This document shows, in pieces, positions 6,420-58,079 of a stretch of 64,000 bases of DNA. A program made the position numbers and the translations under genes. The DNA comes from Amoebidium appalachense. Its lineage: Eukaryota > Protista > Ichthyosporea. The stretch covers positions 4,937 through 68,936 of the forward strand of contig CAVNZM010000024.1 of the NCBI GenBank assembly GCA_963693365.1. The letters are read 5' to 3'. Numbering within the stretch: position 1 is the stretch's first letter; every line of letters starts with the position of its first letter. The notes beneath the pieces are model-generated. The model worked only from the letters and a program-made list of their open reading frames with translations. It searched no databases and was not told the origin of the DNA.

Positions 6420-6674
6420 TTAGAAGGTTTGGAAGGAGCTCTTGTCGGCAGCCACGGGCCAGGGTGTGTACGTGGCCGGCTTCGGTCTCATGGTCCCCCC
6501 TGGACCCTCAATGACGGTGTTTCCTGGTCCGTAGAACGGGCGGGTGTGGGGTACGGGTCCGGGGGCAGGCCGGGTGCGGTAGGGGGAGGGGTACGGGGAG
6601 GGGGACAAGCGTGTGTGGCAACGCATACATGCGCATGTGCTCCGTGTTGGGTGCCATGGTGGTGGTGGTGCCAC
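6420..6674 (-). CDS. Small Pro-rich hypothetical protein
   Basis: Fills the gap in a tandem minus-strand gene array. Confidence 0.35.
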   Translation of the reverse strand: MAPPPPWHPTRSTCACMRCHTRLSPSPYPSPYRTRPAPGPVPHTRPFYGPGNTVIEGPGGTMRPKPATYTPWPVAADKSSFQTF

Positions 6675-6692
6675 TGTTGCCTGTGCCGTAGA

Positions 6693-8988
6693 TTATTTAC
6701 CCTTCTTCTTGCCCTTCTTCTTGCCCTTCTTCTTCTTGTCCTTGTTCCACTCCGAGTCAACCATGGGCACGGCGTTCGAGTTGCCGCCGGAGTGCCGGAG
6801 GGCGAACCGTGCCAGGTGCAGCCAGTAGTCAGGATTGGGGGCTTGGCTGCCTGTTGCCTGTGAAGGCAGGACTCGTGCGTGCGGGTGTCGTGTGTGGCTG
6901 GGCAGGTCGCCAGGCCCGTACTCGTCGTGCCGGGTGCTTGGCCTTGACCTTGGCCAGGGGGGAGGGACGGGGCCGGGCTTGGGGGGCCTTGTGGCCTTGG
7001 TCTTGGACGTGGTCTTGGTGTCGGCAAGGAGGCCGGTGACATTATTGACACCCTCGAGTATGGCTGTCATGTTGTAGCCCTTGCTCTTTGCATAGTCCTG
7101 CGCCAGCACCCAGCCGAGCATTTTCAGCTCACCCATAGTGTCCCTCTCCCCCAGTATGGCCTCGGCAAGGTTACCTCCACCGGCTATACCGGCAAAACCT
7201 TCCCCGCCGGGCACAAGCCTCCGGGCTGCGTTAGCAAAGACCGCCTTCACGTAGGGGTCAATGATAGGGTTGTCCCACCCCGTCCCGTCCCCCGCCACCC
7301 GGCTCAGGAACTCCTCCGGGCTTTCCCCCCTTAGCTTAGCGAACCGTTCCCACGCCCGCTCCCACAGGCCGGGTGTGCTCGGCGCCGTGACCCCATTCTT
7401 CTCCTTCACAGACAGGGCAGGGGACGTGGGGGGTCTCCACACGTCAGGGGTCCCTCCACCTACCGGAGAGACCGTCACAGGCTTCTTGGTCTTTGGGTAC
7501 GACATGTCGCCGTCGTGGCCGATGGTGGCGAGTGCAGTGGTGGTGGTGGGACCCTCAATGCCGAGTGGCCGGGGTAGGTCCTCCCCTCCGCGTGCATGGT
7601 ACTCAAGCATGGCCTGTTTCGAAGCCTTAGGCTCGTTCTTCTTGATTCCCCAGGCAAACAACTTGATGGTTTGGTACACGGGGTCGGTCAGCATCCATTT
7701 CCACAGGTCGGGGCTCTCTTCCTTCAAGCGCACCTCCCAGTCCCACATGGGTTTCTGGAACTCGAAATACTCGGTAAAATCTGGCAGCTTCCACACCGTG
7801 AGGCCTCTCTCCTCTTCGGGGGCCGGGGTGTGCCCTTCAGGGGGCTTGACGGGCACCAGGGGAAAGGCCTCGGCCCACATCTGGAGCGGATAGTTCCCCG
7901 AGCCCGACTGCTTGGACGGCTGCATGACGGCAGGGGGGTTGGGTCCACGGTAGGCGGGGGACTGGGGTAGGGGTCGGGGGCGTAGGGGTGGGAAGGCTAT
8001 GGTGGGGCCGTGGGCAGGTGCTACAGGGGCCTCCACCTGCTTGCCGGCGGTGGAGGGGGGCCGGGAGCCAGGACGGGCGCTGCTGGTGCGTGTCACGGGC
8101 AGGCCGGGCCCGGCGGCCCTGCTGGGGGCTGGCCGTGACCGGTGGGCCACGGACTGGGGCATGAAGCCCTTTGCCGTCACGGGCGGCTTGGCAGGCAGGT
8201 GGGGTGCCACCGGGGTCTTTGGCGGTCCCCCAGGGTGCCAGCCGGGGGATGGGTAAGGTATGGGTGGGCCGTCGGGCTTGGCCGGTAGGTGGGGGGCCAC
8301 CGGGGTCTTTGGCGGTCCCCCAGGGTGCCAGCCGGGGGGTGGGTAAGGTATGGGTGGGCCGTCGGGCTTGGCCGGTAGGTGGGGTGCAACTGGGGTCTTT
8401 GGCGGGCCCCCAGGGTGCCAGCCGGGGGGTGGGTAGGGTAGGGGGTGGCTTGGCCGGCAGGTGGGGTGCCGCAGGGGTCTTTGGCGGGCCCCCAGGGTGC
8501 CAATCGGGGGGTGGGTAGGGTATGGGTGGGGCTTGAGGTGGTGGGGGTGCCTGGGTAGGTGTGGGGAACGGTACGGGTACGGGTGCCACGTCGGGTAAGG
8601 GAGAAGGGGGAGGTCTGGGCCTGGTCCACACGTATGAGCTACCATACTTGTCCTTGAGGTGGGGGTAGTAGTCCATATAGTCTAGGTCCACCTTAACCAC
8701 CTCCGGCAGATGCCCGCCCCACAACGACCCACCGTTACGGTCGGGGTCCATGTACTTGAGCTTGAGAAAGGCCTCGGGGCCCTCCCTTACGAGCTTACGG
8801 TAATCATCCGGGTGCAACCGCTGCTGCAAAGACCCAAACAAACCGACAGGGAGTGCACGCCACGTTTCCCCATCGTGCGGGTGCTTGTAGCTGACACGGT
8901 AATAGCCCACACGTTGTAACCAACCCAAATCCTTGTCCAAGTCGTCAGTGTGCCCATCTTGCTGCACGTGTGTGGTCATGGTGGACAC
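6693..8988 (-). CDS. Large Pro-rich protein with basic tail, one frameshift near 8445
   Basis: ORFs 7837-8988 and 6693-8645 join through the same repeat IPYPPPGWHPGGPPKTPVAPHLPAKP; ends KKKKGKKKGKKKGK. Confidence 0.65.
8180..8530 (-). repeat. 90-bp (30-aa) coding tandem repeat, 4 copies
   Basis: ggcgg(t/g)cccccagggtgcca at 8221, 8311, 8401 and 8483; the last spacing is 82 nt, which breaks the frame. Confidence 0.9.
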
Positions 8989-23045: not shown

Positions 23046-23307
23046 TTGATATGTACATATATGGTAAGTCTGCAGGGAACCGTTGGCGGGCGGTGCGAGC
23101 AGCCAATCATATGCTCTGGCCTTTGTTGACTTGCATTCCATTGGCGGTAGTCCTGTTCTCCTATTGGACGCCTGGTGCATTAGGAGTCGCCGAATTTTAG
23201 AGCACTGTCGCATGTGTGCACTGGAGGGCACAAAAACCACCTGCGAACGTTCCTTTTATTCTAAGCCCCTCTAGCCTGATCTTTGCAAACAGCGAACTTT
23301 AGAAACC

Positions 23308-26357: not shown

Positions 26358-26499
26358 TGTGCTGTTGTTTGGGGGGTGTGGTGAATGTGACTGTGGTGTG
26401 CACCTCAACTGTGTACGTATGGCTCATGTTTGGTTGGCGAGATGTTGCCTGTGTGCGGTTGTTTATGTACACGACTGCAGGAGGCCGCCTCAGGCCGGA

Positions 26500-26720
26500 T
26501 GCGTTTCTGGCCAATGAGGACCGTAATCTTACTATCTGTGTCCTTATTGGACGCCTAGAACCAAATGTGCCAGTCTGAATTCCGATTGGCCGCCTTGTGC
26601 GGCAATTGGCTTTTTGGAGCTGCATTATCATTGGCCGCCTTGCGCATCCGTAATACTATTGGACGCCTTGTACAAGGAATTCAGAATTCGAATTCCTATT
26701 GGACGCCTTGCGCAAACCTT
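26500..26720 (-). promoter_or_regulatory. CCAAT-box cluster upstream of the SSB-like gene
   Basis: ATTGG(A/C)CGCC at ~26546, 26585, 26630, 26658 and 26698. Confidence 0.65.
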
Positions 26721-26843
26721 CGCATTCCTTTGATCCGCACTTGTGTGCATGTACGCACCACATGTACGCGTACACGTACGCGTACACGTGTTCCGCCCTC
26801 TCTCTCTAATTATTTTAATATTTAATTAAAACCACGTGTTTAT

Positions 26844-26844
<1 letters not shown>

Positions 26845-26875
<31 letters not shown>
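26845..26875. repeat. (CA)n microsatellite
   Basis: Read directly. Confidence 0.95.
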
Positions 26876-26876
<1 letters not shown>

Positions 26877-27048
26877 GTGTGCACGTGCTCATGTACATAT
26901 ATCCACCCATATCACATATATCCCATATCGCGATATGTGTACACAGATATCACATATCTCATATTCACATATCCCATATCCTAAGGGGTGCGGTTAATGG
27001 TCGAGGTGACGTCACCTGTGACGTCACGTCGACCATGTGCCGCGCCCC

Positions 27049-30000
27049 TTATTGTAGTCTCTCGTGCAGTTCGGCCTTCAGTTTCTCGTTGAGGGCCGCC
27101 AGCACTTTATCCGCCCTATCTCGGGCGGCCTGGAGGACCGCGGGATTGGACGTGAGGACCTCTGGAAGCACAGGGGTGGCTGGGGCCTGGGGCTTCACAG
27201 GCTTCTGCTTGGCAGGACGCTGTGTGGCTACCAGCTCCTTCCGCTGCCAGGCCTTTGGGTCCGTGCTGAACAGCTGCCATCGGGGATCTCCGGTGGTGGG
27301 GGCGGTGCGCGTGTACGCACGCGCCAGGTCGGTGGTGGCGTGCCCCCTGTTGAGGGCATCGATGACGGCCGTGCGTCCCGTTTCGGTCAGCCGCCACAGG
27401 GCGCCGGCGTGGCTGATAAAGCACGCGGGGTTCTCCAGTATGCTGTTGCGCAGGCGGCGCAGCTGGGACCGTGGCCAGTTCGGGTTATCGGGCCACTTGA
27501 GGGGTTTGTCCTGGGGGTTTGTGATCTTGACAACGCGAGTGTAGATGGTGCCTTCTGGTGCAAAGAAGCCCATGCGGTCCTTGCGGATGTTGGCGTTGCG
27601 GGTGATGTTGATGGGCAGACCATAGCCGCACTTCTTCATCCAGTTGACGATGTAGTCCGGGTTCCGCTCGATCAGTGAGCAGCCGTCCTGGATCAGCTTG
27701 CGAAGGTGGTAGTAGGTCTTGGGGTAGTGGGAGCGCACGTGCTGCTTGACAAAGCCGATGGCCAACTCGGCGACGTTGTACTTGGAGTTGTAGGGGGGAG
27801 CCACTGGAAGCGCCAATGCTTGCTCACGGCGAGCTGCCTGATGTCCGGCAAGTTTTCCTTGGTGTTGTGCACGGGGGCGTTGTCCATGCACAGGATTGCG
27901 CCGTTCGTGCGTGGGTCGGCCCCCAGGACGTACTCCAAGAACACGTAGAACGCACGACCGTCAAGCTCGTCAGGCACCAGGCTTTCGTTGGAAAGCTCGG
28001 CTTGGGGCTCGCGGCCGTGGGGGGCGAGAGGCCGGTAGTTGAACAGCGGGTCGTCGGACGGCCGAGGACTGAGAATCAGGTAGTTGACCACGGCCCGCAT
28101 GTTTCCATCGTTGTCCGCCTTGGGGAACCCCACGGAAATCAGCAGCTTTGTGCCGATGCCGCGCAGCTTGGGCTTGGGGGTTTTGTGATGCGAGCCGCGG
28201 TGCCCCCACACGCGGCCAGGGGTCTCATCCAGGTACACGGAGGCCTCGTCGATGAAAAGCAGATTCTGGCGGTTGTCCTGCAGGTGTGGCAAGCGCTCGA
28301 CCTCAAAGTACTGGGTGGCGGCAGCCACGGACCTTACAAAGGTGTTTGTCGGGTCGCCCTCCCCACGGCGGTACGTCAGCCCAAGCCGCTTGCGCCACTT
28401 GTTGAGCGTGGACACCGACACGTTCATGCGCTCGGATTCGGGCAGGCCAGGCAGTGCGTTGTAGGCGGCCATGAGCTTCTCGCTGGTCAGGTTGGGTACC
28501 TTGGTCGTGAGCTCGTAGAGCACGATCTTCTGTGTGTCCGTCAGCTTGGTGGATTTCTCATGGGCCCTTGCGAGGTTGGTGCCGTGCCGGCTGCTGAACT
28601 CGCCGTGCTTGAGGGCACGTGCTATTACCCGCCGCACGGTCTGCGTGCTGACCTTGAGCCTCTGTGCGGTGTCCGTGAGCCTCTCGTCCCGCAGGTGCGC
28701 AAGCAGGATGGCATCGCGGATGTCCTGCGTGTATGCCTTCCCACGGCCCAGGCGTCCTACGGGCTGTTCGGCAGTTCTCAGCGTGTGCACTTCGACGTCT
28801 GCGGGCAGGGGCTGTGCGAGGGGTTCCTCCCCGTACCAACGCCCCCCGGCACCAGCAGCAGGCGGGCGCCCCCGGGGCCCACCACCCACAGGGCCTCCTC
28901 TGCCCCCAGGGCGACCTTGTTGTCGGGGAGGAGCCTCAGCGTGAAGGAGCCTTTCGATGCCACGGTGCTTCGGGATGGCAGGGGTTCATAGACCACGGAG
29001 CGGACAGGCGAAGGGCTGTCAGGCGCGTCGACGTTGAGAAGATCACCTGTGGACTCCAAGGGCATCAGCCGCTGGCGCTCCAGCTGGTACAGCGCCAGAG
29101 GGGGGTTTCCCCCGGGCTGGGGTGGGTAGAACCCCGCGACCGTGGCCTTAGACTTGTACACAACGGGCCTGCCCGTGTGCTCGATGACGTGCATCGCCAC
29201 GAGCATTGCGCGCGGGACAAAGCGGTCGAGCCTGACGACCAGGTACGTCATCGGCCGGAAGTGCTTGGAGATGTGCGGATCCACAAACACGATCCCGCAC
29301 ACCGAGTCCGTAATGTCGGATGTTGTGTTGACGGCGGTGCCCGGCGACCGGGGCCTCCCGGCGGTGTACAGGCCCGCAAGCTGCTCCCGCTTCCGGTCGG
29401 CCCAGGCGGCGATGGCCGTGCGAGCGTTGTCCGGGCTCACGCCCAGCGCATGTGCAACCGTGGCAAGTTCCTGGGCGGTGGAGTCGGCAGTGGTGGGTGT
29501 GGGCGCCTCTGCTCTTCGGCGGGTCGAAACGGCATTGGCAACAAGACGGCTGCGGGCGTCATCGAAACGGGTTTCTGAGAGCTCAGGCCGGCCGAGATCG
29601 GCGTAGAAGCGTTTGTGCATCTCCCTTTCATCATCGATGCTGGTGGCTCCGGGGGGGCGTGTGACCCGAGGTGAATACGCTTACCATCTCGAAGGTCAAG
29701 ATCCTGGTCATCGGCAAGGGCCCGCAGGATGTGCTGGACACGGCCGTAGTACTCCTGCCCTGAAAGGTCGCGCGCAACACTCATGGTCAGTTCCTTGAGG
29801 GCCTGCCGCATGGTCGCACGATCGGTACCGGCTGCGCGCAGCTCCTTGGCCAGCTTTGCACGCTCGGCGATGAGTGTCTGGAGCGCGTGCTTGTAGGGGT
29901 AGGCCCGTTCGTCGTCCTCGCGGTGGACTCCTTCCACAAACTCAGGCCGTGGCAGCCCGGGCACCATCAGGGCGAGCGCCTCGAGCATGTTGGGCTCTCC

Positions 30001-30627
30001 GGGATCATCGGAGTCTTCCGGCGCTTTGCCCTCCTTTGCTTTCTGGGAATCCCTTACGTTTTTTCCAGCTATGCGCTGGGCCTCCGCAAGGGCGGCATAC
30101 GCCATTCGGATGCGCTCGGGATGGTCCGGTGTCGTGGGGTGGCGTGTCTTCCGATTTTCCACCTCCTTGGCGAAAAGCGCGTGGCCCCTAGAGTCCGTGA
30201 CACCCTCGAGCTTGACCAGGCGCGGCGTGCTTGTGCGAACATACGCCTTGCTCAGTATCCCCTGAACGTTCTCGGCAGTTACACGGGCATCATCGAGGGG
30301 TTCTTGGGTCAGGTCCTTGCCTGCAAGCTCCTCCCACCAGGTCTCGGATCGGGACGGTGGGGTTTGTGTAGGCGGGGCGGGTGCGTACATGGGATCACGG
30401 ACACGGAATCGCAGGTTCAGATTGCCATCCCTGGCCTGCCTATCGGTGCCGGTGTTGTATGACGGGTGACGCGGGTCCTGCACCAGCTGTGCGAGGGGGA
30501 AAGGGTCATCGGCTCGGGATTCTAGAAAGAAGCGGCCAGGATTCTCGGCACTTGGCCAGGCATCGGCCACGACTTTATTGGACTGAGTGTCCACCACAAC
30601 ATACCCCGGTCTACGGGACCGGTCCAT
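27049..30627 (-). CDS. Very large (~1190 aa reconstructed) IS630/Tc1-mariner-like DDE protein, three homopolymer frameshifts
   Basis: HTH region, LLFIDEASV...RVWG, ILCMDNAPVH and WLPPYNSKYNVAE; adding one base at each of ~29655, ~28845 and ~27795 fuses four ORFs. Confidence 0.75.
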
Positions 30628-30646
30628 GCCCCAGGCGTGGAAAATC

Positions 30647-31432
30647 TCACAATGGGCACAGATGGAAGGCTAGGACGCCTAAGTCACTGACGGCGTACTC
30701 GAATCGGATGAGCTTGTTACTGGACATGTGTATCCTGACGTTGCTGTTCACGCACGCGCCCTTGCAGAACGCGCTGAGATACTTGACCATGAACTGCGCC
30801 TTGACCTTCTCGATCGGGACCTTCTTGAACTCCACACCCGTGGCTTTTCCCCTTCTGATCTTCAGCGCGTCCTCTCCCTTTTCGGGGATGTCTATCCTGC
30901 ACTTCCCCAGCGCGCCCAGCGCACGCAGCCGGAGCGTGCGATCCGCGACAGTGATCTTCACGACATTGGACACGGCCTGGATGTCCCTCAGGTAGCGCGC
31001 AAGCTCCTGGGCGTCGATGACAAAGACACAGTCGTAATCGAGCGATGGGGCGTCGAGGATTTGCCGCACCTCCTTGACCAGGGTCATGTTGTACACGATG
31101 CAGCTGCTGTCATCGGTGGTCTCCATCTTGACCTGCAGGGTGTCGTCCGTGGCGGTGAATGCGATGCTGTTGAAGCGGTGGGCGGTGGCGTTCTTGACGA
31201 TCTTGTACAGGTTCTGGATCTCGAACGTGGCGGTCACATCGTTGGGTACGTCGAAGATCTCAAACTTGTCGGGGTGCAGCTTCATGTAGACGTAGGCCTT
31301 CTTTGCATTGTCAACTGCGGGCAGAACAAAGCCCTCCTTCCCACTGAACAGCACGGTCACCTCGCCGAGGATGTCCTTGACGCTGTCGATGGCGCATTTG
31401 AACGTGTTGACTTGCACGGTCTTGACGAGCAT
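30647..31432 (-). CDS. PCNA: PCNA sliding clamp, giant-virus-like
   Basis: KTVQ..FK..IDSVKDIL, LYKIVK, FMVKYLSAFCKG...VRIHM...FEYAVSDLGVLAFHLCP; 261 aa. Confidence 0.92.
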   Translation of the reverse strand: MLVKTVQVNTFKCAIDSVKDILGEVTVLFSGKEGFVLPAVDNAKKAYVYMKLHPDKFEIFDVPNDVTATFEIQNLYKIVKNATAHRFNSIAFTATDDTLQVKMETTDDSSCIVYNMTLVKEVRQILDAPSLDYDCVFVIDAQELARYLRDIQAVSNVVKITVADRTLRLRALGALGKCRIDIPEKGEDALKIRRGKATGVEFKKVPIEKVKAQFMVKYLSAFCKGACVNSNVRIHMSSNKLIRFEYAVSDLGVLAFHLCPL

Positions 31433-31520
31433 GGTGGGGGACTGACGCTGAACGTGCCGGCAACGCTGTTTTTATACCCTTGGGGGCCCGGGGGTTGGGG
31501 CTTTTTTCTATACAACCGGT

Positions 31521-32351
31521 ATGAATTCTGGATCCATGGACCGCACGCTGCTGTACATGGGCATCATCGCAGCTGGCTTCTACTACTACAACAAGAGGGC
31601 GTCGGCATGGCCAACAGCACCTACGTTCCAGCCTGAGGACAGTGACCCGGGGCAACAGCCCGGATTCAACAACGACCCTGGCATGCAGTGGGGGCTGCAA
31701 CCCTCCGACAGCCCATTTGACCGAGACCTGGCACTTGCATACCGGGACAGTGCTAGGGGGTTCGACGACGATACCGTCGCCATGGGCAACCAGGAGTACT
31801 TTGGAGACGAGGAGGACGAGTACGTGCTCGGCTACGACGAGTACGCCACGGCCGACGGCGGGGGCACGGTCGTCAACACGGGCAACGGGCCAGTTACGGT
31901 ACCGCAGGCGCCTCCTTCGACGCGGGCTGTGCAGCAGGCTTCGGTGGTTCCCTCAGGCACACCGTCAGCGCTCATCGGCGCGCCCGCACGTCCGGCTGTG
32001 CACCCCAACCTTGTGCAGACCGTGCATCGGGCAGGGCCAAACGTCAGCAACTCCACCATGGACGCGATCTCACAGATCCGGGGCACGGGCCTCTTCACGG
32101 GCAGCGAGATGCGGCCGCGTGAGAGGCTGAGCGTGGCGAAGCTGACGCCGCAGGAGGTGCTTGCCGCCACGACACGTCCCCGCAACGTGGCGGCACCCGC
32201 CGTGTACAAGAAGAACGGCAACCTTCAGCTACGACCCGACCCAGCGATCCACAGCGCCGGGTTGGACAACCTCCCGTCCATCAGCACACAGCGCGACCTC
32301 AGGCAGCGCGAGTCGTTCTCAAACGAGCTGGCGTCGACACTGCTTTTTTGA
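31521..32351 (+). CDS. NCLDV minor capsid protein P11-like
   Basis: N-terminal TM segment, disordered middle, C-terminal KNGNLQLRPDPAI...PSIS resembling the RNANLQLRSEPP..P...STI motif. Confidence 0.55.
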   Translation: MNSGSMDRTLLYMGIIAAGFYYYNKRASAWPTAPTFQPEDSDPGQQPGFNNDPGMQWGLQPSDSPFDRDLALAYRDSARGFDDDTVAMGNQEYFGDEEDEYVLGYDEYATADGGGTVVNTGNGPVTVPQAPPSTRAVQQASVVPSGTPSALIGAPARPAVHPNLVQTVHRAGPNVSNSTMDAISQIRGTGLFTGSEMRPRERLSVAKLTPQEVLAATTRPRNVAAPAVYKKNGNLQLRPDPAIHSAGLDNLPSISTQRDLRQRESFSNELASTLLF

Positions 32352-32404
32352 ACGAAATAAAGGGGGGGGATGAAACCCCCCCCCCCCCCCCCCTCCCCAA
32401 GATG

Positions 32405-32630
32405 CACCGACCGTGTTCTCCCCCCCGAGCAGCCCGACCCGCCCGGACCGTTTTCTTACCAAACCAGAGAGAACAGGACGGCGGGCGCGACCCTTTGGCC
32501 CGCGAATTCGTAGAGAAAACGGTCCTCGGCCCCACCATGTCTCCCGCGGACAAAGAGAACACCGTGGCACCCGTTGCAATGTCTCCGAAATTTCTAGAGA
32601 ACAGGGTCGTGGGGTTGACCCTGTTCGCCC
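32405..32630. repeat. Palindromic array copy A (inverted homologue of 54304-54528)
   Basis: GAGAACA and ATGTCTCC blocks at ~42-bp spacing. Confidence 0.85.
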
Positions 32631-32760
32631 TGTCCAGGACCGCTTTTATTGAATAAAGGAGCCCCTCCCGGAATATAGGCAAGCAAAATATTCGATCAGT
32701 GGATTGCATGATTATCATCGGCGCTGTAAGCAAATGTTGCGTTGCAAAGAACTGGTGTGC

Positions 32761-34040
32761 ATGGAGCAGGCACTCGTGCCCCACTCCATCTCATTCGACA
32801 CGGGCACCCTGAACCTCGAGGATGCGGCAGCGTGCGTGGCCCAAGTCCTCCCCTACTCCGTTCCGGTTGAGGGGCCGTGCGCGGGGCTGACGCTGGGCGC
32901 GGCGGTGGGGGTCCTGAACAGCGCGCTGACGGTCAAGGACGATAACGTGTTGTCCACGGTGAATGAAATCAACGCAACATTGAGAAGCCATCAAGCTAGT
33001 CTGGCTCTCAAGGCTGAGAAGACTGCACTGGCAGCGCTTGCCGAGGTGGTTAATACAAAAGCAGATGAAGTTAGTGTGGCGGAGCGCCTAGACCAGAAAG
33101 CAGATAAGATCACGATCGACACAACTCTCGATGGCATCACGCAGGAGTTTGGTGACCGGTGCACAAACATCGAACAGCAAGTCCTTCTAAAAGAAGAGAA
33201 GAGTGTGGTGGCCCAGCTCCGCAGTGACTTCACCGAACGGACTGTCTATGTAGACAGCGAATTGTCGAACAGGGAGACCAAGGCCGTGGTGGGGAAGCTC
33301 AGAAACAACTTTACTGATAGGACCGCCTATGTCGATGGCGAACTCGCACCTTAGGGAGTCCAAGGCCGTGGTTGCAACATTAAGAACCGATTTCACTAAC
33401 AGAACCGTTTACGTAGACGGCCATTGCTAGCAAGGCAAGCGTGAAGCCACCATTGTGGATGCTTTGCAGAGCACCGTGCAGACACGCACGGCACAACCCT
33501 AGCGGCGAAAGCAGAACTCAAGTTACGTAGACGGCCTTCTAGCCAAAAAGCGGAAGCTACCATTGTGGATGCCTTGACCAGCTGCGCACCGATTGCACAA
33601 CCCTAGCGGCGAAAGCAGACTCACCTACGTTAACGGGCTTCTGGTCAAAAAGGGATTTTTTTTTTTTTTTTGTGTCGGCGAAAGCAGACTCAAGCACTGT
33701 GCAGGCACTCCAAACAACCGTCAAGACTCAAGGCACTACGCTGGCTGCGAAAGCCGATAAATGCTATTGCGATACGCAGTTGAACACCAAAGCAAACACC
33801 AGCGTGGTCGGCACCTACACCACCCCCACCACGGGCCCCGCCGCCACCAAAACCACCATCTCAGCCGCCGTGCTCGCGCTGAACGCGAGCGCCCCGCCGG
33901 CCAACGTGGGCACGTGGGCCGCGCCGACCGTGGGGCCCGCCGCGGGCAAGGCGACGATCGCCGAGGCCGTGCTGGCCATCAACGACCATGTGGACCGGCT
34001 GACGTCGGCGCTCGAGGCGCTGGTCGCCCGGCTTGAGTAA
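32761..34040 (+). pseudogene. Fibre stalk-like protein with KAD repeats, disrupted at ~33350-33670
   Basis: Repeated KAD/KAE coiled-coil units; P..GP.....AV..(L/I)N motif three times; multiple indels and a T16 run. Confidence 0.6.
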
Positions 34041-34052: not shown

Positions 34053-35681
34053 TCACGCATTTATGTTGAGATACCAGCCGGCCCAGTCGCACCAGCGCCA
34101 CGTCAGGTTCCGTGTGGCGTCATAGTAGTCCACGTCCTTGTACTGCTGCGCGTCGACGGTGCCATCTGGCTTTGCGCCCTCGAGGTCGTCCAGGCGCACG
34201 ATGCTTCCCGTGTAGTAGTTGCCAGTCGTTTGTGCGGGCCACGGGGAGCCCGTGTAGAAGGAGGACACCAGAGGTTCATTGTTGTCGCTTGTAAAATCAA
34301 ATTTCGCACACGAAACGCCTGGGTTGGCGGCCTCCATGAGGCGCCCCATTTCGTTTGTGTCCCAGAACGGTTCCGTACTATCCCTGACCGACTGCTTGGT
34401 TTTTGCGGTGTTGATTGCCACATTATAAGGCAGTGCCACGTATCTGTACTTTGTAGCCTGAGGGACAACACAGACAAACTTTGTTTTGTGGCCGTACGAT
34501 ACGCTTATCTCATCCATGCCGACGTCCAATAGTATGTTCTCGTTGTTGATGGCGCCTCCGAAAATATAGGAATCGCTTCTCCCGTCGCTGACAAGATAGG
34601 CGGGAACGGGTGTGTTCGAGAGCCAACTGAGGGACTCCGTGCAGAGGGCGCCTGGTGGGGCGGTCCAGCTATCCGATCCGAAGCTCGGGTACCTCCTCTC
34701 AACGGCGACAAAGCCCGGCTTGGGGACAAGGTAGAAGAAGTTGTCCGTTTGGAACATGTTGCGGTACAGAGAGGGCATGCCTGCGACACCTGGTGCTGCA
34801 TACGTGCCTGCAAGGGACCCGGTGGTAACATTGACACATCGGACCGTTCCAAATTTCGAGCCGTGCGCCCACGTGAAGCACAAAGCTGCGAAGGTAGGAC
34901 CCTCCTTGTAGATTATCCCAAACGTCACGGCCCCGGGCGGCACGCGCGGGCTGCGGACCCAGCGGTAGCCGGGCCCGTCGATCTCGTTGAGCACGAGCGA
35001 GCGGGCGTCGCGGCCGGGCACGCCCAGGTCGTACGTCCACAGCTCGATGTCCTTGACGGCGTGCTCGGTGTAGTCGGCCGTGGATGTGTAGGCGCACAGC
35101 GAGAGAAAGGTACTGGCGGTGGATGAGGGGGTCAGGTCGGCCAGTGTGTATGTCAGGCGCAGCCGGCCGAGCGAACAGAACACGTAGCCGGCGTCCGGGG
35201 CGATGCTTATGACGCACGTCTGCCAGGCGCCGTTGGTGCCGTTGGCCGGCCATCCCAGGAAGTTGAACGAGCCGTTGGGCTGGTAGGACACGACCTTCCC
35301 GGACCCCGGATTGAACTGCAGGCGGAACTCCTTGCCGGCGACGGCTCCGTTTGGGAACGAGTTGGCCTGGTTCCACGACACGTACAGGGCCTCCTTCTGC
35401 GGGGTGGACCCGGCGCCGGTCCTGAACTTGAAGGACAGCACGAAGCGCTGCCCGGGGCACACGGGCCAGTACACGTAGCCGGTCTGGTTGGCGGCGCGGT
35501 TGGTGAGGCGGATCTCGGCATTGGCCCTGTTCATGTAGGCGCTGCCGCCGAGCGTGCCGGTGGTGGGGCACGCCCAGTTGGTGCGGGCCCAGTTCTCGGG
35601 GGTCTCCTGGAGCACACATCGGGGGGGCGAGCCCTCGATGTTGAGGATGCGCTGTGTGAGGCGGGCGAGGCGGTCCGCCAT
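34053..35681 (-). CDS. Lectin-domain protein 1 (L-type/ConA-like plus DM9-like)
   Basis: MADRLARL...LGGSAY...EIRLT...GYVYW...FVLSFKFR; PPGAVTFG; ends WRWCDWAGWYL. Confidence 0.7.
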   Translation of the reverse strand: MADRLARLTQRILNIEGSPPRCVLQETPENWARTNWACPTTGTLGGSAYMNRANAEIRLTNRAANQTGYVYWPVCPGQRFVLSFKFRTGAGSTPQKEALYVSWNQANSFPNGAVAGKEFRLQFNPGSGKVVSYQPNGSFNFLGWPANGTNGAWQTCVISIAPDAGYVFCSLGRLRLTYTLADLTPSSTASTFLSLCAYTSTADYTEHAVKDIELWTYDLGVPGRDARSLVLNEIDGPGYRWVRSPRVPPGAVTFGIIYKEGPTFAALCFTWAHGSKFGTVRCVNVTTGSLAGTYAAPGVAGMPSLYRNMFQTDNFFYLVPKPGFVAVERRYPSFGSDSWTAPPGALCTESLSWLSNTPVPAYLVSDGRSDSYIFGGAINNENILLDVGMDEISVSYGHKTKFVCVVPQATKYRYVALPYNVAINTAKTKQSVRDSTEPFWDTNEMGRLMEAANPGVSCAKFDFTSDNNEPLVSSFYTGSPWPAQTTGNYYTGSIVRLDDLEGAKPDGTVDAQQYKDVDYYDATRNLTWRWCDWAGWYLNINA

Positions 35682-35714
35682 TGAGTAGGGCAAAACAAAT
35701 GTGCGCAGTGGGCA

Positions 35715-37316
35715 ATGGCGGACCGGCTGGCGACGCTGGACGCGCGAATCGACAAGCTGGCAGGGCGGCACACGACGACGCTGGTGCTTGAGAACGCCGA
35801 AACGTGGAGCGCCACGCAGCAGGGCACGGCGTGGGTGGCGCCGGCGGCGGGCGTGCTGGGGGGGACTGCGTACATGAACAGGGCGGGGGGGGAGATCCGG
35901 CTGACGGACAAGCAGAGCAGCCAGCACGGCTATGTGGTGTGGGTAATGCCACCCGTGGACAACTTCCAGCTTGCTTTCCAGTTCAGGGCCGGCGACGGCA
36001 CGACCAGCGGTGCCGATGCCTTGTGGGCCAACTGGTTTAGCTTGGGGCAACGGTACTCCGGCCAGCGATACCAGGGGGAAGACGAGCTGCTGCAGCCCGG
36101 GGCGTACCGGCTGACGTTTGACGAGTACGAGGCGCAGTCGCGGGTGTACTTTGGCGCCACGGTGCTGGGCACAGCCACGTACCCCCGAGCCGGCACCAAC
36201 GGGGTGTGGTGGACGTGCATGGTGCGGTTTGCCGCCAAGACCAACGGGCTGCAGGTGCTGCTGGACAAGGGAGCGGGCTGGACGCAGCTGCACACCCAGA
36301 CACCCACACAGCCTGCCCCCACGCGCGCGACCATCCTCTCACTGTGCGCACGCACGGGCGGGCTCTCGTGCGAGCACGCCGTGCGCAACATCACGCTCAC
36401 CACCAACACGCCGTCGCCCGGGTGCGACGCCGCGCTGACGGCCATCAACGAGCTCGAGTTTCCCACGCACACGCTTGTGCGTGCGAGCCGACCGCCGCCG
36501 GGGGCCGTGACGTTTGGGGTACATGTTAATCTGGGGCCGATCTATGCGGGGTTCTGCGCATCAGCACACGGCATGGTGCCGTGCAAGATTTCGGCGATCG
36601 GAAGCCCGATGACGGCGTACTACGCCCTGGGTGGGGCGTCCTACTCAAGCACAACGTTCTTCTATGTGGTGCCCAAGGCCGGGTTTGTTGCAACGCGCAG
36701 GCGGCAGATCGGGGGACCGCCCAATAGCGCGCTGTACATCGGCAAACCACGGGCAGCGCAAGAGCGTGGCGCCCTGTACCTCATCTCTCTGGAACGCACG
36801 GACACGTTCACGTACGGCTCGTACGAGCCGGGGGGTTCGATCCTGTGTGAATACATGGGCGCTATCACGCTTACAGACGACGGGTCGTGGGAGTACGTGT
36901 GCGTCGTCCCGCAGACCACCAAGGGGCGGTACGTGACGCTCCCACGAGGCGTCTGCACAAGTTCTGTAGGTGGTGAGTGGTCACCGGCGACTACCTTCAC
37001 GGGCCTGGACGTGGACGAGATCGTGGCGGAGGGCGAGCGCATGGCGGCCGCAAAAGGGGTCACGCTCATGGCCGTGGACTACTCGTACAAGCCGGCACTG
37101 GGGCGGGGGTACTACTTCAAGCCGGCCCCGTCGTGGCCGGCCAAGACCACGTGGCGGGACGGGGCGTGCATCATCCGCACCGACGTGTTCGAGAACGCCA
37201 AGCCGCGTGTATCGCCAACGGCGTACACCAACGCCGACTACACGGACACCAACCTGCTGGTGTGGCGCTGGCACGCTGCCTGTGGCTGGTACCTGAACAT
37301 GGCCATGCTCGCCTAG
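35715..37316 (+). CDS. Lectin-domain protein 2
   Basis: MADRLATL...LGGTAY...EIRLT...GYVVW...GADAL; PPGAVTFG; ends WRWHAACGWYL. Confidence 0.75.
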   Translation: MADRLATLDARIDKLAGRHTTTLVLENAETWSATQQGTAWVAPAAGVLGGTAYMNRAGGEIRLTDKQSSQHGYVVWVMPPVDNFQLAFQFRAGDGTTSGADALWANWFSLGQRYSGQRYQGEDELLQPGAYRLTFDEYEAQSRVYFGATVLGTATYPRAGTNGVWWTCMVRFAAKTNGLQVLLDKGAGWTQLHTQTPTQPAPTRATILSLCARTGGLSCEHAVRNITLTTNTPSPGCDAALTAINELEFPTHTLVRASRPPPGAVTFGVHVNLGPIYAGFCASAHGMVPCKISAIGSPMTAYYALGGASYSSTTFFYVVPKAGFVATRRRQIGGPPNSALYIGKPRAAQERGALYLISLERTDTFTYGSYEPGGSILCEYMGAITLTDDGSWEYVCVVPQTTKGRYVTLPRGVCTSSVGGEWSPATTFTGLDVDEIVAEGERMAAAKGVTLMAVDYSYKPALGRGYYFKPAPSWPAKTTWRDGACIIRTDVFENAKPRVSPTAYTNADYTDTNLLVWRWHAACGWYLNMAMLA

Positions 37317-37339
37317 CACATTTTGTGGGGGACTGCATT

Positions 37340-39724
37340 ATGGGCGACCGTGTGAGTGCCCTTACAGCTCGCATTGCGTGGCTGCCCACCAGCCAGCAGG
37401 GATCGCGGTGCCTCGTCTGGGAGACCCCGGACGTGTGGGCCGCCACGGGCTGGCAGGCCCCGGCCACAGGCCACCTGGGAGGATGTGCGTACTTGGACAA
37501 GACAGGGGGGGAGATCCGGCTGACCCCGGGCACGGCCAGCCAGCTGGGCTACGTGTTCTGGCCCCTGCATGCGGGCCGCCGGTTTACGCTCAGCTTCGAG
37601 GTGCGGGTCAAGCGCTTCACGGCGCTGCCGGGAACCAAGATATGGGCGGCCGTGTGGAGTCCCGTTCTGGGGCACGCATCGAGCAGTGGAAGCACCAACG
37701 TGGACCTTCGGCTGACTATGGACGGCCAGGCCGGTACGCTGAGCACCGAGACGCTCACGCAGTCCGTGGATCTCGACTCCACGTACACGACGACGGGGGC
37801 CTGGACGCCAGTTGTGATTGACGTGGTCCGGGACCAGCGGGTGACGTACGTGCACGGGGCAGCCACAAAGACCGTCACAAGCACGGCTGTGACGACGTCC
37901 GTGTCGCCCAGCAGCAGCTACGTGTGCATCGGCGCACAGACGGGCAGCAGCTACAGCGAGGTGGGCGTGCGCAACGTGGCGCTGCACTGCATGGATCCCG
38001 AAGCCATCGGGCGGGACGTGCGGCGGCTGGCGTGCAACGAGGTGGAGTTTGAGACCTACACGCTGGTGCGCCGGGCGGTGCCACCGCGCAATGCCGTGAT
38101 GTTCCAGTGCGACGCGTATGGACCGGTGTGGGGGGGCTTCTGTGTGACTAAGGAGCACGGGCTGATGCCATGCAAGATAGTGAGCAAGAACAACACCGAG
38201 CCGGTGGCTGTCTACGGGGTCGGAACCTTAGACATGTCCACATCCGATTTCGTTGATAAACCCGAAGGCGAGTCCCGTCAGATAACGGCGTCCGTATTCT
38301 TCTACCTAGTCCCAAAGCCGGGCTTCGTGGCGTGCCGGCGGCCCCAGATCAGAAGTGTGGCTGCCGGGGCCGTGGCCGTAACGTGTGCAAGCATGTCAGG
38401 GAGCCGCACGCCGCTGTACCTGATCTACTGCGAGTACAGCAACGCGTTCGGACGGTACGACCCCAGCAAGTTTGCCGAGGTGCAGTCGTCGCAGGACAGG
38501 TGGACACGCATGCTTGACTGCGGGAGTTGGGACTACGTGTGCATTGTGCCGCAGACCACCCGAGCCCCCTGGGTACAGCTGGCAAGGAGAACTTTTTCGG
38601 CGGGTGCCTCGGTATCCAACCCAGCTGGAACAAACCATTGGGCGGCAATAGTCGCGTACGCAGACACAAAGGGTTACACAAAGGTTTGCTACGAAACCAC
38701 CAGCAGTGCGCCCAATCTTAACTGTGTGTCTGGTGACATCAACACAAACGATGTCATGGTCCCCAATGGGGTGCGGTCGGCAGAATCTGTGGTGGTGAGG
38801 GCGGATCTTTTGACCAAGACCATGCCGGGCGCAGCGACAAACACCTCGAGCTACGTGTCTACCACACTTGTCAACTCGTGTGTGCCATGGCGCTGGAACA
38901 ACTGGTCGGGGTGGTACGTCTACATGCCGTATGCACGCTCGCGCTGGTACGTGTTTGACCAGCTGGCCGACCACAGCACCAGCAACACATTCAACGACTG
39001 GACAGATGCCAGCAATTTCGGATACGCAAGCCCGCAGCAATGCATGGCACGTGCAGAGGCCACCTCGGGGTGTCGGCAATTTGGCTTTGCGCCCGTCGTC
39101 AATGTAGGCGGTGTCTATGGCTACTGCTATATGCGCAAGGCGGTGGCAGCGTGGCCGTTGCAGGCCTGGACAAATCCACCCGGTATTTCCGCCTGGACTT
39201 ACAGTACGCAGCAAACATATATCATGGAGCCTGATGTTCCAGTCGCCTACCGGAACCAAGGAGTCCTGTGCGAATGGAACGGCTATTACATTCGGAGATG
39301 GGCTGTTGAACTTGGCACGTACCCCATGTCGCCCTGGGGCTCGGCATCGGGGTTTGTGACCACTGTCGCAAAGTGGATCTGGTCCGTGCCTAACGCGCAT
39401 CTGGGTTGTATGCCCAGCTGGACGTACGGCTACAAAACCTACGACAACGGGAGCTCCCCCCTTGATGTTGTGATTCATGCGCTGTGCGACAAGACGATGC
39501 AAGTGAGTGTGAACGGCATTAAGCTCGGAGTGGTAGTCGGTGGCTGGACGACCACCTCCTACCCCAAGATCAATGCTACCCTACAGCCCTTTGGAAACGT
39601 CGTTAGTTTCGTGGCCAATAACGGCACAGCAGCAAGCACCGCGGGAGTGCTGATTGCTGTGGTGCGCAGGGACAATGGCGCCGTGTTGTTTGTGAGCGAT
39701 GGGTCATGGACGAGTTCCATTTAA
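37340..39724 (+). CDS. Lectin-domain protein 3 with added PAN/apple-like and C-terminal WIW beta-sandwich domains
   Basis: Same core as paralogues, plus SPQQCMARA...CRQF...YCYMRK and AKWIWS...VNG...SDGSW. Confidence 0.75.
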   Translation: MGDRVSALTARIAWLPTSQQGSRCLVWETPDVWAATGWQAPATGHLGGCAYLDKTGGEIRLTPGTASQLGYVFWPLHAGRRFTLSFEVRVKRFTALPGTKIWAAVWSPVLGHASSSGSTNVDLRLTMDGQAGTLSTETLTQSVDLDSTYTTTGAWTPVVIDVVRDQRVTYVHGAATKTVTSTAVTTSVSPSSSYVCIGAQTGSSYSEVGVRNVALHCMDPEAIGRDVRRLACNEVEFETYTLVRRAVPPRNAVMFQCDAYGPVWGGFCVTKEHGLMPCKIVSKNNTEPVAVYGVGTLDMSTSDFVDKPEGESRQITASVFFYLVPKPGFVACRRPQIRSVAAGAVAVTCASMSGSRTPLYLIYCEYSNAFGRYDPSKFAEVQSSQDRWTRMLDCGSWDYVCIVPQTTRAPWVQLARRTFSAGASVSNPAGTNHWAAIVAYADTKGYTKVCYETTSSAPNLNCVSGDINTNDVMVPNGVRSAESVVVRADLLTKTMPGAATNTSSYVSTTLVNSCVPWRWNNWSGWYVYMPYARSRWYVFDQLADHSTSNTFNDWTDASNFGYASPQQCMARAEATSGCRQFGFAPVVNVGGVYGYCYMRKAVAAWPLQAWTNPPGISAWTYSTQQTYIMEPDVPVAYRNQGVLCEWNGYYIRRWAVELGTYPMSPWGSASGFVTTVAKWIWSVPNAHLGCMPSWTYGYKTYDNGSSPLDVVIHALCDKTMQVSVNGIKLGVVVGGWTTTSYPKINATLQPFGNVVSFVANNGTAASTAGVLIAVVRRDNGAVLFVSDGSWTSSI

Positions 39725-42735: not shown

Positions 42736-43446
42736 ATGCATGTCTTTTGTCTGTTCTTGCTTGTGCTTGGGTGTAAGATACGTGCTCAGACGTTGTCCCG
42801 CTACGGTTCTGGGGATGGAAACGTGCTGTTTGCATACGAAGGGGTGGCCAACATAGACCGCTATCCCGATGTTGCACATCTCGCACACAGCCACATTGTG
42901 AGGGTGACGCATGCAGTTACGGGCGTCGGTTGGACATCGGGGACATACATACCGGACGGGACAGGCAACGGAGTGTTTGTGCTGACGTGTGCGCACGGGC
43001 CCCCCACCAGGCACCCGGACCAGCTGGCGGTGGTGTTCCCGGACGGCACCGTATCCAACGCCACTGTGCGATACAGGAGCGCTGAGCATGACTTTGCCAT
43101 CCTCCATTCGGTATACGCACATGGGATGCACGACGACCGCTTTTGTCGCTACTACGCACCCCCCGCTGCCCCTGGCATGTCCGTGCTGGCCATCGGGCTC
43201 CCTGCGGGATACAGGGGTGTGCAGTTCAGTGTGGGGACGCTCTTGGACATACAGGGTTCCACGCAGGAACTTGTGTTCAGCGGGGCCGTAGACCGTGGGA
43301 ATTCGGGGGGGCCCCTTGTGGACATGCGTGGGTGTTTGATAGGCATTGTCACGAGGCGCAGGTACCGCATGAATGGCAGGGAGGTGTTTATTGGGATAGC
43401 GGTGTCTATTGCGGCCGCCCTGGAGGCGGATGCGCGCGGGTATTAA
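42736..43446 (+). CDS. Trypsin-like serine protease with signal peptide
   Basis: VLTCAH, DFAIL and GNSGGPLVD..G.LIGIV give the catalytic triad; hydrophobic N-terminus. Confidence 0.85.
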   Translation: MHVFCLFLLVLGCKIRAQTLSRYGSGDGNVLFAYEGVANIDRYPDVAHLAHSHIVRVTHAVTGVGWTSGTYIPDGTGNGVFVLTCAHGPPTRHPDQLAVVFPDGTVSNATVRYRSAEHDFAILHSVYAHGMHDDRFCRYYAPPAAPGMSVLAIGLPAGYRGVQFSVGTLLDIQGSTQELVFSGAVDRGNSGGPLVDMRGCLIGIVTRRRYRMNGREVFIGIAVSIAAALEADARGY

Positions 43447-43474
43447 AGCAGTCGCACGGGCAGTGCCCGTCACA

Positions 43475-44152
43475 ATGGACCTGATTTCGCGCCTGAAACA
43501 GCACGAGCTGCCGTACCCACAGGGCTCCCAGGCATGGCTGCGGGAGCGCTCCTGCATGCTGACTGCCTCCGACGTGGGTGCGGCTCTGGGGGTCAACCCA
43601 TACGAGACCCGCCAGGACCTTATACGGCACAAGGCGGGCCTGGAGAGGCGCTGCGTGGACCCTGTCTTTGTTGCGTTCGGCCACAAGTACGAGGATGAGG
43701 CGGCTGATGCGTACGCCCGGAGCACAGGCCGGTCGTGTTTCTCCCTCGGGCTGGTGCGGCACCCCGTGCATCGGTGGCTGGGCGCGAGTCCGGACCGGGT
43801 GACGTTCTGTGGGCGCGTGGTGGAGATCAAGGTGCCCTACAGGCGCAGGTTCATGGAGGGGCAGGAGATCCCGGGACACTACCTGGCGCAGGTGCAGACG
43901 CAGCTGTTTGTCCTGGATCTGGACGTCGCGGACTTCGTGCAGTACGATCCACGCGACGGCTCGCTTAGGGTGGACGAGGTTTTGCGGGACCCCAACTGGT
44001 GGAGGGACAACGGACGCAGCCTGATGGCATTCCAGGGGAAGGTGCTGGACGTGCGTGCCGACCACGAGCTGCAGGCGTGGGAGGAGGAGGAGCCAGCCGA
44101 GCCAGGCAAGTGCATGGTGCCATCCACGACGACACTCACGGGCTCTTCTTGA
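43475..44152 (+). CDS. YqaJ-like viral recombinase / lambda exonuclease
   Basis: QGSQAWL..R...TASD, G...E, LGASPD, VEIKVP, Y..QVQ.QL. Confidence 0.92.
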   Translation: MDLISRLKQHELPYPQGSQAWLRERSCMLTASDVGAALGVNPYETRQDLIRHKAGLERRCVDPVFVAFGHKYEDEAADAYARSTGRSCFSLGLVRHPVHRWLGASPDRVTFCGRVVEIKVPYRRRFMEGQEIPGHYLAQVQTQLFVLDLDVADFVQYDPRDGSLRVDEVLRDPNWWRDNGRSLMAFQGKVLDVRADHELQAWEEEEPAEPGKCMVPSTTTLTGSS

Positions 44153-50016: not shown

Positions 50017-51456
50017 ATGGACGACTACCTCGCCTTCGAAGACACCGCCGCCGGCCCGCACTTCGGCATCCCCTTCGTCCCCGACGCCTGCCTGGACCAC
50101 GAGTGGACCCCGGAGCTCGCCGTCGCCTACCTGCGCAGCAATGTCGCCCACGTCAAGGGCTGCTCGACGTACATCCTCAAGCAGTGGTGCCAGGACAGGC
50201 TGAAGTACGAGCACCGCATCCTGGGCAAGCGCGACATGCAGGACACGCTCGCCAAGTTCCACTTCCCGCTGCTGGCCGACCGCCCCAACCAGCAGCCCGC
50301 CGCCCCCTACCGCGGCCGCGAATACCTCAACAGCCCGTACATCCTCATGTACGACCGGCTGGTGTTCGATCCCGCCAGCCCGGACCCGCGCACGGGGGTG
50401 TACAAGAAGTCCGCCGGGCCCTACCGCACGTTCAACCTGTTCACCGGGTTCCGGTTCACGCTGAGCAACATGCCCGTAGCCCGGCGTGACGAGCTGGTGG
50501 CGCCCTTCGTCTCGCACGCGCGCGACGTGCTGTGCGGTGGCGACCCCGGGCTTTTTGACTACCTGATGCTGTGGATGGGCCACCTGTTCCAGCACCCGGC
50601 GTCCAAGCCCGGCAGCGCGCTGCTGCTCGTGTCCAAGCAGGGCGCGGGGAAGAACATCTTCTTCCAGGCGCTCATCGACGCCATGGGGGTCGAGCACTCG
50701 GTGTACGTCAACCGGCGCGACCGCATCCAGAACCACTTCAATGCGCACCTGCAGAACAAGCTGCTGGTGGTGGTCGACGAGGTGCTGTTCAGCAACTCGC
50801 GTGAGGTCAACAACATCATGAAGTCGCTCATCACCGAGTCGTCCAACATCCTCGAGAAGAAGGGTCAGGATGCCGTGGCTGTGCGTGCGTGCGAGCGCTA
50901 CGTGCTGCTGACCAACGAGAGCAACCCCGTGCTTGTCGAGCCCAGCGACCGCCGCTACGCGTGCATGGCCGTCAGCAACGCGCGTGTCGGCGACACGGCC
51001 TACTTTGCCACGTTTCACCAACACCACAGAGACCCCGAGGTGCTGCAGGCCATCCACGACCTGCTCGTGTCCGTGCCCGACGTGCCGCCCGTGCTGCCGC
51101 CGCCGCCCGTGACCGACCTCAAGAAGGAGCTGCGTGGCGCCACGCTTGACGACAACGTGGCGTTCCTTCGTGACATCGCCACGGGCGCAGACGGCTGCGA
51201 GGACCTGGCCGTCGCCGACGGCGCTTACGTGACCACTTTCGGGCTGGCCGAGCGCATGCGCACGTGGGCCGCACGCAACGGCAAGGACCCCGCGGCCGTC
51301 AGTGTCAAGAAGCTGGGCGGCGTGCTCGGCAAGGTGTTTGGGCAGCGCGTCAAGAAGCAGCGGAGCGCGGTGGCGGTGGGGGGCGTGGAGGGCACGGATC
51401 CGGAGGAGTACGTGCACGTGTACGTGTTCGAACACGCGAAGGTGGCGGGGGCGTGA
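50017..51456 (+). CDS. D5-like SF3 helicase (DUF5906-type), copy 1
   Basis: QGAGKNIF, FNAHLQNKLLVVVDE, LLTNE...DRRY, C-terminal winged helix. Confidence 0.88.
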   Translation: MDDYLAFEDTAAGPHFGIPFVPDACLDHEWTPELAVAYLRSNVAHVKGCSTYILKQWCQDRLKYEHRILGKRDMQDTLAKFHFPLLADRPNQQPAAPYRGREYLNSPYILMYDRLVFDPASPDPRTGVYKKSAGPYRTFNLFTGFRFTLSNMPVARRDELVAPFVSHARDVLCGGDPGLFDYLMLWMGHLFQHPASKPGSALLLVSKQGAGKNIFFQALIDAMGVEHSVYVNRRDRIQNHFNAHLQNKLLVVVDEVLFSNSREVNNIMKSLITESSNILEKKGQDAVAVRACERYVLLTNESNPVLVEPSDRRYACMAVSNARVGDTAYFATFHQHHRDPEVLQAIHDLLVSVPDVPPVLPPPPVTDLKKELRGATLDDNVAFLRDIATGADGCEDLAVADGAYVTTFGLAERMRTWAARNGKDPAAVSVKKLGGVLGKVFGQRVKKQRSAVAVGGVEGTDPEEYVHVYVFEHAKVAGA

Positions 51457-54303: not shown

Positions 54304-54528
54304 GGCGAACAGGGTCCACCCCCGGCACCTGTTCTCCAAGGATCCGGGAGACATGGTTGGGGATGCCATGGTGTTCTCTTGGGTTCCGGGAGACATGGGG
54401 GGGACCGGCGATGCTGTTCTCTAGCAAAATCACGGGCCAAACGTTCATGGGCACTGCCGTGTTCTCTCTGGTTTGTGGAGAAATCGGTGGACTGGGTAGG
54501 GGGCGGGGGCAGGAGAACAGGGTGGTGA
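54304..54528. repeat. Palindromic array copy B (inverted homologue of 32405-32630)
   Basis: TGTTCTC and GGAGACAT blocks; reverse complement aligns with copy A. Confidence 0.85.
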
Positions 54529-57448: not shown

Positions 57449-57578
57449 TGTAGTTGGCGCTAGAAAAAATATACAAGCCACGACACCCGATGCTGTGCAT
57501 ACCAGTGAGGGCTTGAGGGGCTGTGGGTGGCTCCCGTGGCACACGTGCCTCGCGGGCCTCGCGTGCCTCGCATGCCCC

Positions 57579-58079
57579 TCAGGGCCCCCCAGGCGCCCCC
57601 GCAGTGTTGAACGTACGGCTGTGGGTAGACGTGTATCGCTGGTTACGGACACGGGTCTTGGGGTCGGGGTCGCTGGGGTCGAAAACAATACCACCGTCGT
57701 AGACGACCATTTGGCTGCTGTCCAGATGCCATGAGCCCTTGTATGTTTCCACCTTTTTGCCCGTCGGGTTGTATTTGAACTTGTACTTGGACAGCATGTC
57801 GGCCACCTTCTTCTTGGACTTGACCTCATGGACGAATCTCCCATCCTTGAAACGCTTGAAGAGGTACACACCGTCCGGGCGGGAATAAGCCACTAGTGTA
57901 CGACAGAACGTGTGGATCTGCTCCTCGGTCCACTCGTAATTCTCGACAATGTCTGCGTCCAACCAGTTGTTGCGCGTGCCTGTTGTCCGCTCAAACTCTT
58001 CGTATGTCGCCAGTTTGCGCTGCTCGTTCTCGGACATGTCCGCGGCGATCTGCATGTATAGATCGTCCATGTTGTCCAT
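57579..58079 (-). pseudogene. Truncated N-terminal fragment of a third D5-like helicase
   Basis: WT.E...VAY...FDPSDPDPKT...RTFN matches both full copies and stops at the GC repeat. Confidence 0.7.

Follow-up and report, generated by a model that had tools for sequence, protein, structure and literature searches.

The window is the whole 64,000 nt stretch of Amoebidium appalachense DNA analysed here. It contains a Polinton-like element on the left and a giant-virus-like segment on the right, and the first gene of the right-hand segment encodes a very large protein with an IS630/Tc1-type DDE core. The relevant features are as follows, with strand given for coding features.

5720-27058: Polinton/adintovirus-like element and its repeat ends, with A32 ATPase, Dam and rve-type integrase genes and, judged by eye, likely capsid genes
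26982-27051: imperfect hairpin with 34-bp arms, on the foreign side of the junction (-33.5 kcal/mol, z -8.7, 0/200 shuffles)
27058-27059: junction of the virus-like segment with the repeat end of the left element, and source of the foreign stop at 27049-27051; the same loose end is present in 4/4 runs
27059-64000: giant-virus-like segment with PCNA, two DUF5906 helicase-like, patatin, Fic and trypsin-like genes and a weak DUF5760 match; runs off the window
27059-30627, minus: gene for the giant IS630/Tc1-type DDE protein, spanning the start codon to the point of departure from the majority sequence, with the true 3' end outside the window
27059-27765, minus: C-terminal extension, of which the first ~130 aa align with relatives; cut at the junction
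27766-28250, minus: catalytic core, DD38E, with D794 (28250-28248), D916 (27884-27882) and E955 (27768-27766)
27793-27798: third homopolymer assembly error, within a conserved motif preceding the catalytic E; 4/4 runs have an extra base
28602-28709, minus: first helix-turn-helix (HTH) of the DNA-binding region (Pfam HTH_23, E 2.4e-7, above the cut-off)
28750-30627, minus: N-terminal region of ~625 aa, homologous to the N-termini of four whole relatives
28842-28847: second homopolymer assembly error; 4/4 runs have an extra base
29651-29657: first homopolymer assembly error; 4/4 runs have an extra base
30647-31432, minus: divergent intronless PCNA gene, 19 nt upstream of the DDE gene on the same strand, with a TATA-like motif upstream

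In the window, the DDE gene region appears as four overlapping minus-strand ORFs (30627-29437, 29620-28778, 28889-27693 and 27891-27049), and each change of frame between them falls in one of the three homopolymers. The stretch was present in 20 of 24 public runs among those listed, from four named studies, and no RNA run was among the listed runs that carry it. Logan contigs from four runs (X4, X13, X18 and X1), one of which may be the sample behind the window itself, were compared with the window, and all four have one additional base in all three homopolymers, supported by the entire depth of the covering contig. As the short-read contigs of every compared run contain the extra base, the three frame breaks arose as errors in the assembly, and the four ORFs together make up one gene, unbroken in the runs. 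The joined frame is 1193 aa long, with X placed at the breaks. Programmed frameshifting was ruled out, because the runs themselves contain the base. The fusion of four ORFs by one base in each of three homopolymers had been part of the original prediction, together with a call for accurate reads, and the short-read contigs of 4/4 runs do join all of the frames. An ordinary IS of ~1.2 kb is not hidden inside, as the frames form one giant gene and no inverted repeat of >11 nt was found around the core. Single-base differences from the short-read contigs were also seen at 32570, 32654 and 33347, and assembly errors probably account for other split ORFs in the window as well.

Judged from its sequence, the gene encodes an ITm (IS630/Tc1/mariner)-type protein with an HTH and an intact catalytic triad. 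The first and second aspartates are 121 aa apart and the D-E spacing is 38, so that the HTH and D...D-38aa-E core predicted earlier were both recovered. The best family matches of the core were NCBIfam transpos_IS630 (NF033545, E 1e-18) and Pfam DDE_3; the window piece falls below both cut-offs, and DDE_3 is above its cut-off in the relatives P0001 and P0002. The DD38E spacing is not diagnostic, being present in 16 of the 84 distant matches that could be scored by motif patterns. Domain and structure prediction had been proposed as a check; the domain half of it gave the HTH and the IS630-type core, but the AlphaFold models of the core and the N-terminal region were both poor (mean pLDDT 40 and 44), and the geometry of the core is not readable from its model. 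In ITm transposons, the HTH binds the element ends and the DDE core cuts and joins into TA, and the typical form is a compact element of ~1-2 kb with an ORF of ~300-400 aa. The ORF found here, at >3.5 kb, does not fit a compact ITm element. No RuvC-type (TnpB/Fanzor) family was found in the window pieces or in four whole relatives, the DNA 3' of the gene being absent from the window.

When relatives were sought with a word-based search, P0001 (1432 aa) and P0002 (738 aa, partial) were returned. A profile search of 1.84 billion representatives gave 340 proteins at E 0.001 and only four at 1e-30, namely P0002 (itself part of the query), P0004 (1619 aa), P0005 (1390 aa) and P0006 (1533 aa). These four scored at least 571 bits and the next protein 69 bits. 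The window protein shares 35-39% identity with the relatives over the HTH, the core and ~130 further residues. The four whole relatives are 1390-1619 aa long, with ~560-600 aa ahead of the HTH, and all four match HTH_29 and HTH_23; all five relatives retain the triad, with DD39E spacing. A quick tree was built from 69 cores, the window protein plus 68 of 151 non-duplicate matches that passed a motif filter, and in it the window protein and the five relatives formed one clade (SH-aLRT 99, no bootstrap). On these comparisons, the giant proteins form a small and sharply separate clade that shares the N-terminal region. The window protein is a giant and previously unannotated form of a known enzyme family, and no description of ITm proteins of 1400-1600 aa was found in the open-access literature, subscription journals being outside the scope of the search.

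Each relative is a cluster of one or two sequences from Logan or ENA, on contigs that are short for most (4.8-8.2 kb); that of P0004 is 22 kb. Their loci were not found in the viral contigs, metagenome contigs or prokaryote genomes searched, and no protein in the near length range was matched by the last ORF. The link of the giant clade to viruses is shown for the window member only. A second clade of long IS630-like proteins (P0007, P0009, P0029 and P0108; 650-1170 aa), separate from the giant clade, has large inserts between the first and second aspartates and, by eye, a chromodomain-like C-terminal motif.

Against a profile of the four whole N-termini, the N-terminus of the window protein scored 29 bits, compared with a maximum of 1.8 in 500 shuffles (186 reported). 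The homology is significant over residues 119-289 and weak further on; the second N-terminal piece alone had no significance, though short motifs line up with the relatives. An N-terminus of ~600 aa from no recognisable family had been predicted, and this held for the ~625 aa region: it has no Pfam family, no PDB match and nothing informative in PHROGs or Atlas. PHROGs matches were limited to HTH/DDE, apart from two weak, unnamed matches to the second piece, the N-terminus of P0004 had no usable Atlas match, PDB sequence searches with both profiles gave no match, and Foldseek against viral models found nothing at E 0.001. A VIA match of the N-terminal model was set aside as uninformative, being to a generic helical bundle only (best Z 8.1, rmsd 3.4, 106 aligned).

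The 3' end of the gene is missing from the window. In 4/4 runs, the contig with the 3' part departs from the window at 27059 into an identical 30 other letters, which are stop-free solely in the frame of the DDE gene (one of the three frames) and have no match within the window or in viral contigs. One X4 contig, at depth 473, extends 2140 letters past this point. The stop codon in the window (27049-27051) is past the junction, at the edge of the hairpin in a multi-copy repeat end, and 238 residues follow the catalytic E in the window copy compared with 476-671 in the relatives. Given the divergence of the contigs at 27059 and the longer C-termini of the relatives, the window copy is truncated and the majority form is longer. 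The window stop codon is foreign and the true protein is >1190 aa. The earlier figures of ~1190 aa for the protein and ~200 aa for its C-terminal extension are therefore lower bounds only, as the gene runs on past 27059 in 4/4 runs and the majority sequence continues beyond the junction.

No piece bridging 27058/27059 was found among the pieces listed, and in X4 bases 26994-27058 seem uncovered (123 expected vs 121 seen); hairpins drop out of contigs. The junction is either a real rearrangement (insertion plus rearrangement) or an assembly join. Because neither matching terminal repeats nor a target duplication were found for the left element within the window, its simple insertion into the DDE gene lacks support. 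The hairpin at 26982-27051, which lies at a multi-copy repeat end and has variant forms in other runs, could be the terminal hairpin of a linear element. Loose ends in X4 at 29103 resemble a second, diverged DDE gene copy present at low depth, and one X13 contig exits the gene at 30545 into other DNA and is another truncated or interrupted copy.

The left element adjoins the element with the DDE gene and is not part of it, and AT-rich DNA lies beyond it. The rve integrase gene (19843-21162) is within the Polinton-like element, the sampled body of which is far less abundant than the right-hand segment. As this gene belongs to a different, low-abundance element, the proposal that the DDE protein is a 'second' integrase falls away. 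GATC is depleted in the left element (0.31 of expected), as are CGC/GCG (0.33), and the values for the right segment are 0.95-0.99. There are hints in base composition that the right-hand segment arrived more recently than the left element. Six copies of a CCAAT-box-like motif (23151-23180 and 26534-26715) lie upstream of two unrelated ORFs.

The right-hand segment is a compact, intronless gene block with weak Pox_D5 and DUF5760 matches beside PCNA and the two DUF5906 genes. Hallmark genes (major capsid, PolB, VLTF3 and A32) were not found among the ORFs scanned in 27059-64000, from which the segment runs off the window, nor was any herpesvirus family among the ORFs scanned. As no capsid or polymerase gene of the right segment is in the window, the label 'giant virus' rests on accessory genes, and it is in this sense that the intact transposase gene lies within a virus-derived gene block. 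No PCNA relatives were found in viral contigs. The two DUF5906 helicase-like paralogues (50017-51456 and 58307-59908) are 37% identical and on opposite strands, and there are further D5-like fragments at 56753-58508. Three related lectin-like genes, of fibre or receptor type and one of them on the opposite strand, are found at 34053-39724. Inverted repeats of ~180 bp with 75% identity, at 32447-32629 and 54304-54488 (21.7 kb apart), have variants in short-read contigs and are likely to be a small repeat family of the virus-like segment. The ORF at 43409-44152, which by eye resembles a YqaJ-type exonuclease, had no match in Pfam, PHROGs or PDB.

The tight packing of the DDE gene behind PCNA was confirmed, with 19 nt between the PCNA stop and a DDE start that matches the starts of the relatives. 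With only 19 nt available, a free-standing TIR and leader would not fit upstream. The DDE-PCNA border is crossed by single, unbranched contigs (27864-31097 in X4 and 27864-32102 in X1), and no loose ends at the 5' border of the DDE gene were found among the rows listed. No second copy of the gene was found in the window. No inverted repeat of >12 nt was found between 26400-27400 and 30200-31700, or of >16 nt between the surroundings of the gene and the rest of the segment, in both cases with the true 3' flank absent from the window. The claim that TIRs are not visible thus stands for the DNA near the gene in the window, but the region searched lacks the true 3' flank. Codon use in the DDE gene is within the range of its neighbours and slightly nearer to the virus-like than to the Polinton-like pool (0.75 vs 0.81), a difference that is not discriminating. 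The unbranched contigs, at equal depth on both sides of the border, support the DDE gene being a fixed resident of the virus-like segment, and not an independently hopping IS.

The segment is also abundant. Long contigs over the DDE gene, 0-3 letters off the window, have depths of 534 (X4), 83 (X1) and 1390 (X13); unique left-element pieces at 6600-8150 have depths of 18-22, 2 and 110, respectively, and AT-rich pieces in X13 of 20-25. The ratio of segment to neighbouring DNA is 27x in X4, 41x in X1 (with its baseline at the detection floor) and 13-62x in X13; these are ratios of contig depth, which is not a copy number, sampled over 6.6 kb of the right half (27059-33500) and 3 kb of the left. 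The DDE gene, PCNA and the next genes have level depth, with no excess of DDE over PCNA. As contigs also cross the DDE-PCNA border, the amplified unit is larger than the DDE gene.

Our preferred reading, to which we give a probability of roughly 45%, is that the DDE protein is the element's own candidate integrase and, like that of Teratorn, inserts the whole virus-like element into host DNA. The HTH region would bind terminal repeats at the distant ends of the element, and the core would cut at these ends and carry out strand transfer of Tc1 type, with TA as the predicted target. The additions of ~600 aa at the N-terminus and ~500 aa at the C-terminus may be pairing or targeting modules for a very long cargo, and the window copy would be a damaged one, cut in its 3' part on meeting the Polinton-like repeat end. 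In favour of this reading are the whole gene in 4/4 runs, the conservation of triad and HTH in relatives only 35-39% identical, the giant form of all four whole relatives, the lack of room for a TIR upstream, the fixed linkage to PCNA, the abundance and near-identity of the segment, and the precedent of Teratorn. Against it, neither an element end nor a TIR or TA duplication was seen in the window, where the segment runs off on one side and its left part has been replaced, and the depth ratio differs from run to run, which would be expected if a virus or episome were replicating freely. Moreover, ITm genes in the giant endogenous virus of Chlamydomonas belong to selfish Fanzor elements and do not explain the 6-bp end duplications (10.1101/2024.09.03.611062). 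The broader reading is tentative: a giant-virus-derived element would multiply as a transposon, as an analogue of Teratorn, with tens of integrations of a virus-sized element per genome carried out by this new clade of IS630/Tc1 enzymes of 1400-1600 aa.

Amplification in a form near-identical across runs of several studies fits mobilisation. A freely replicating virus would account for the depth equally well; chromosomal and free copies look alike in contigs. The abundance might come from a virus or episome that replicates persistently, with the DDE protein domesticated for another DNA job and not for integration; concatemer resolution, genome-end processing and recombination with PCNA-linked replication are candidates. 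The long unbranched contigs in runs of several studies, the 13-62x range of the ratio, the packing behind PCNA and the neighbour-like codon use are all compatible with this explanation, and relatives that occur as clusters of one or two sequences do not resemble a spreading transposon family. We nevertheless consider it rather doubtful: the window shows at least one copy attached to chromosome-like DNA, the X13 contig leaves the gene at 30545, an HTH with an intact triad is a full transposase kit, and no PIP-box was found in any of the six members of the giant clade.

An oversized selfish ITm transposon that inserted once behind PCNA in a virus and moves only itself is unlikely; its missing 3' part might include cargo or a Fanzor gene. 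Precedents exist, as ITm transposases occur in giant viruses (Nucleocytoviricota clusters of 320-343 aa in Atlas, with scores <0.9, and genes in Table 1 of PMC11544213) and in the Fanzor elements described for Chlamydomonas in the available text of 10.1101/2024.09.03.611062. The 3' flank, where a second TIR would be sited, is missing from the window, and the relatives lie on short contigs, as repeats often do. The 19 nt upstream are too short for a TIR unless it overlaps PCNA, and the clean 5' border among the rows listed, the lack of a depth excess over PCNA and the single copy in the window all argue against a transposon moving by itself. The possibility of a dead relic or of artificially joined frames, suggested by the three breaks and truncated end in the window, is nearly excluded by the absence of the breaks in 4/4 runs, the intact triad, the existence of whole relatives and the lack of a stop in the gene's frame over the 30 letters visible beyond the junction.

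Like ITm transposases, including those of giant viruses, the window protein has an HTH followed by an RNase H-type DDE core with DD38E/DD39E spacing. Unlike them, it is at least 1190 aa long (relatives 1390-1619 aa), with 121-164 aa between the first and second aspartates, extra N- and C-terminal regions and no TIRs seen near the window gene; viral ITm genes with a stated length in Table 1 of PMC11544213 are 278-341 aa. Teratorn, in which a piggyBac transposase lies inside a herpesvirus at 30-40 copies (available text of PMC10175614), shares with the window segment the placement of a DDE transposase within a large DNA virus-like element. Teratorn exists in tens of copies (PMC10175614 and PMC6431247), and the abundance of the window segment is measured as contig depth. 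The transposase superfamily (IS630-type core here) and the virus group (alloherpesvirus there) differ, and of the two only Teratorn has established TIRs, TTAA duplications and activity. The Chlamydomonas giant endogenous virus likewise contains ITm genes (10.1101/2024.09.03.611062, available text), but these are described as multi-copy selfish elements with Fanzor, whereas the window gene is giant, has the depth of its neighbours and has no RuvC/Fanzor domain found.

The giant endogenous elements and adintoviruses of protists in PMC11244446 are similar in that intronless giant-virus blocks containing PCNA and D5-type genes lie next to Polinton-like elements with Dam. There, integration is treated as stochastic, with divergent insertions, and no ITm enzyme is named in the main text or two supplements. 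In the available portions of other sources, IS630-like and IS4-like genes are reported in brown-algal viral elements (PMC11890097), the Submariner MITEs of Pandoravirus are non-coding (PMC4495683), a role for transposases in giant-virus integration is put forward as a hypothesis (10.1101/299784) and mobility genes are counted by keyword only (10.1101/2025.04.19.649669).

In the accessible parts of the papers cited, the entry and persistence of giant viruses in eukaryotic chromosomes is called stochastic or no candidate integrase is reported. The DDE locus is a concrete candidate integrase for giant-virus endogenisation. If this is true, giant-virus endogenisation would have a named enzyme, and a Tc1-type enzyme would have been adapted to a cargo of many tens of kilobases; one able to handle very long cargo would be of interest to genome engineering. 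Even if the protein is not an integrase, it represents a conserved ITm clade four times the usual size, with an N-terminal region of ~600 aa without a matched fold.
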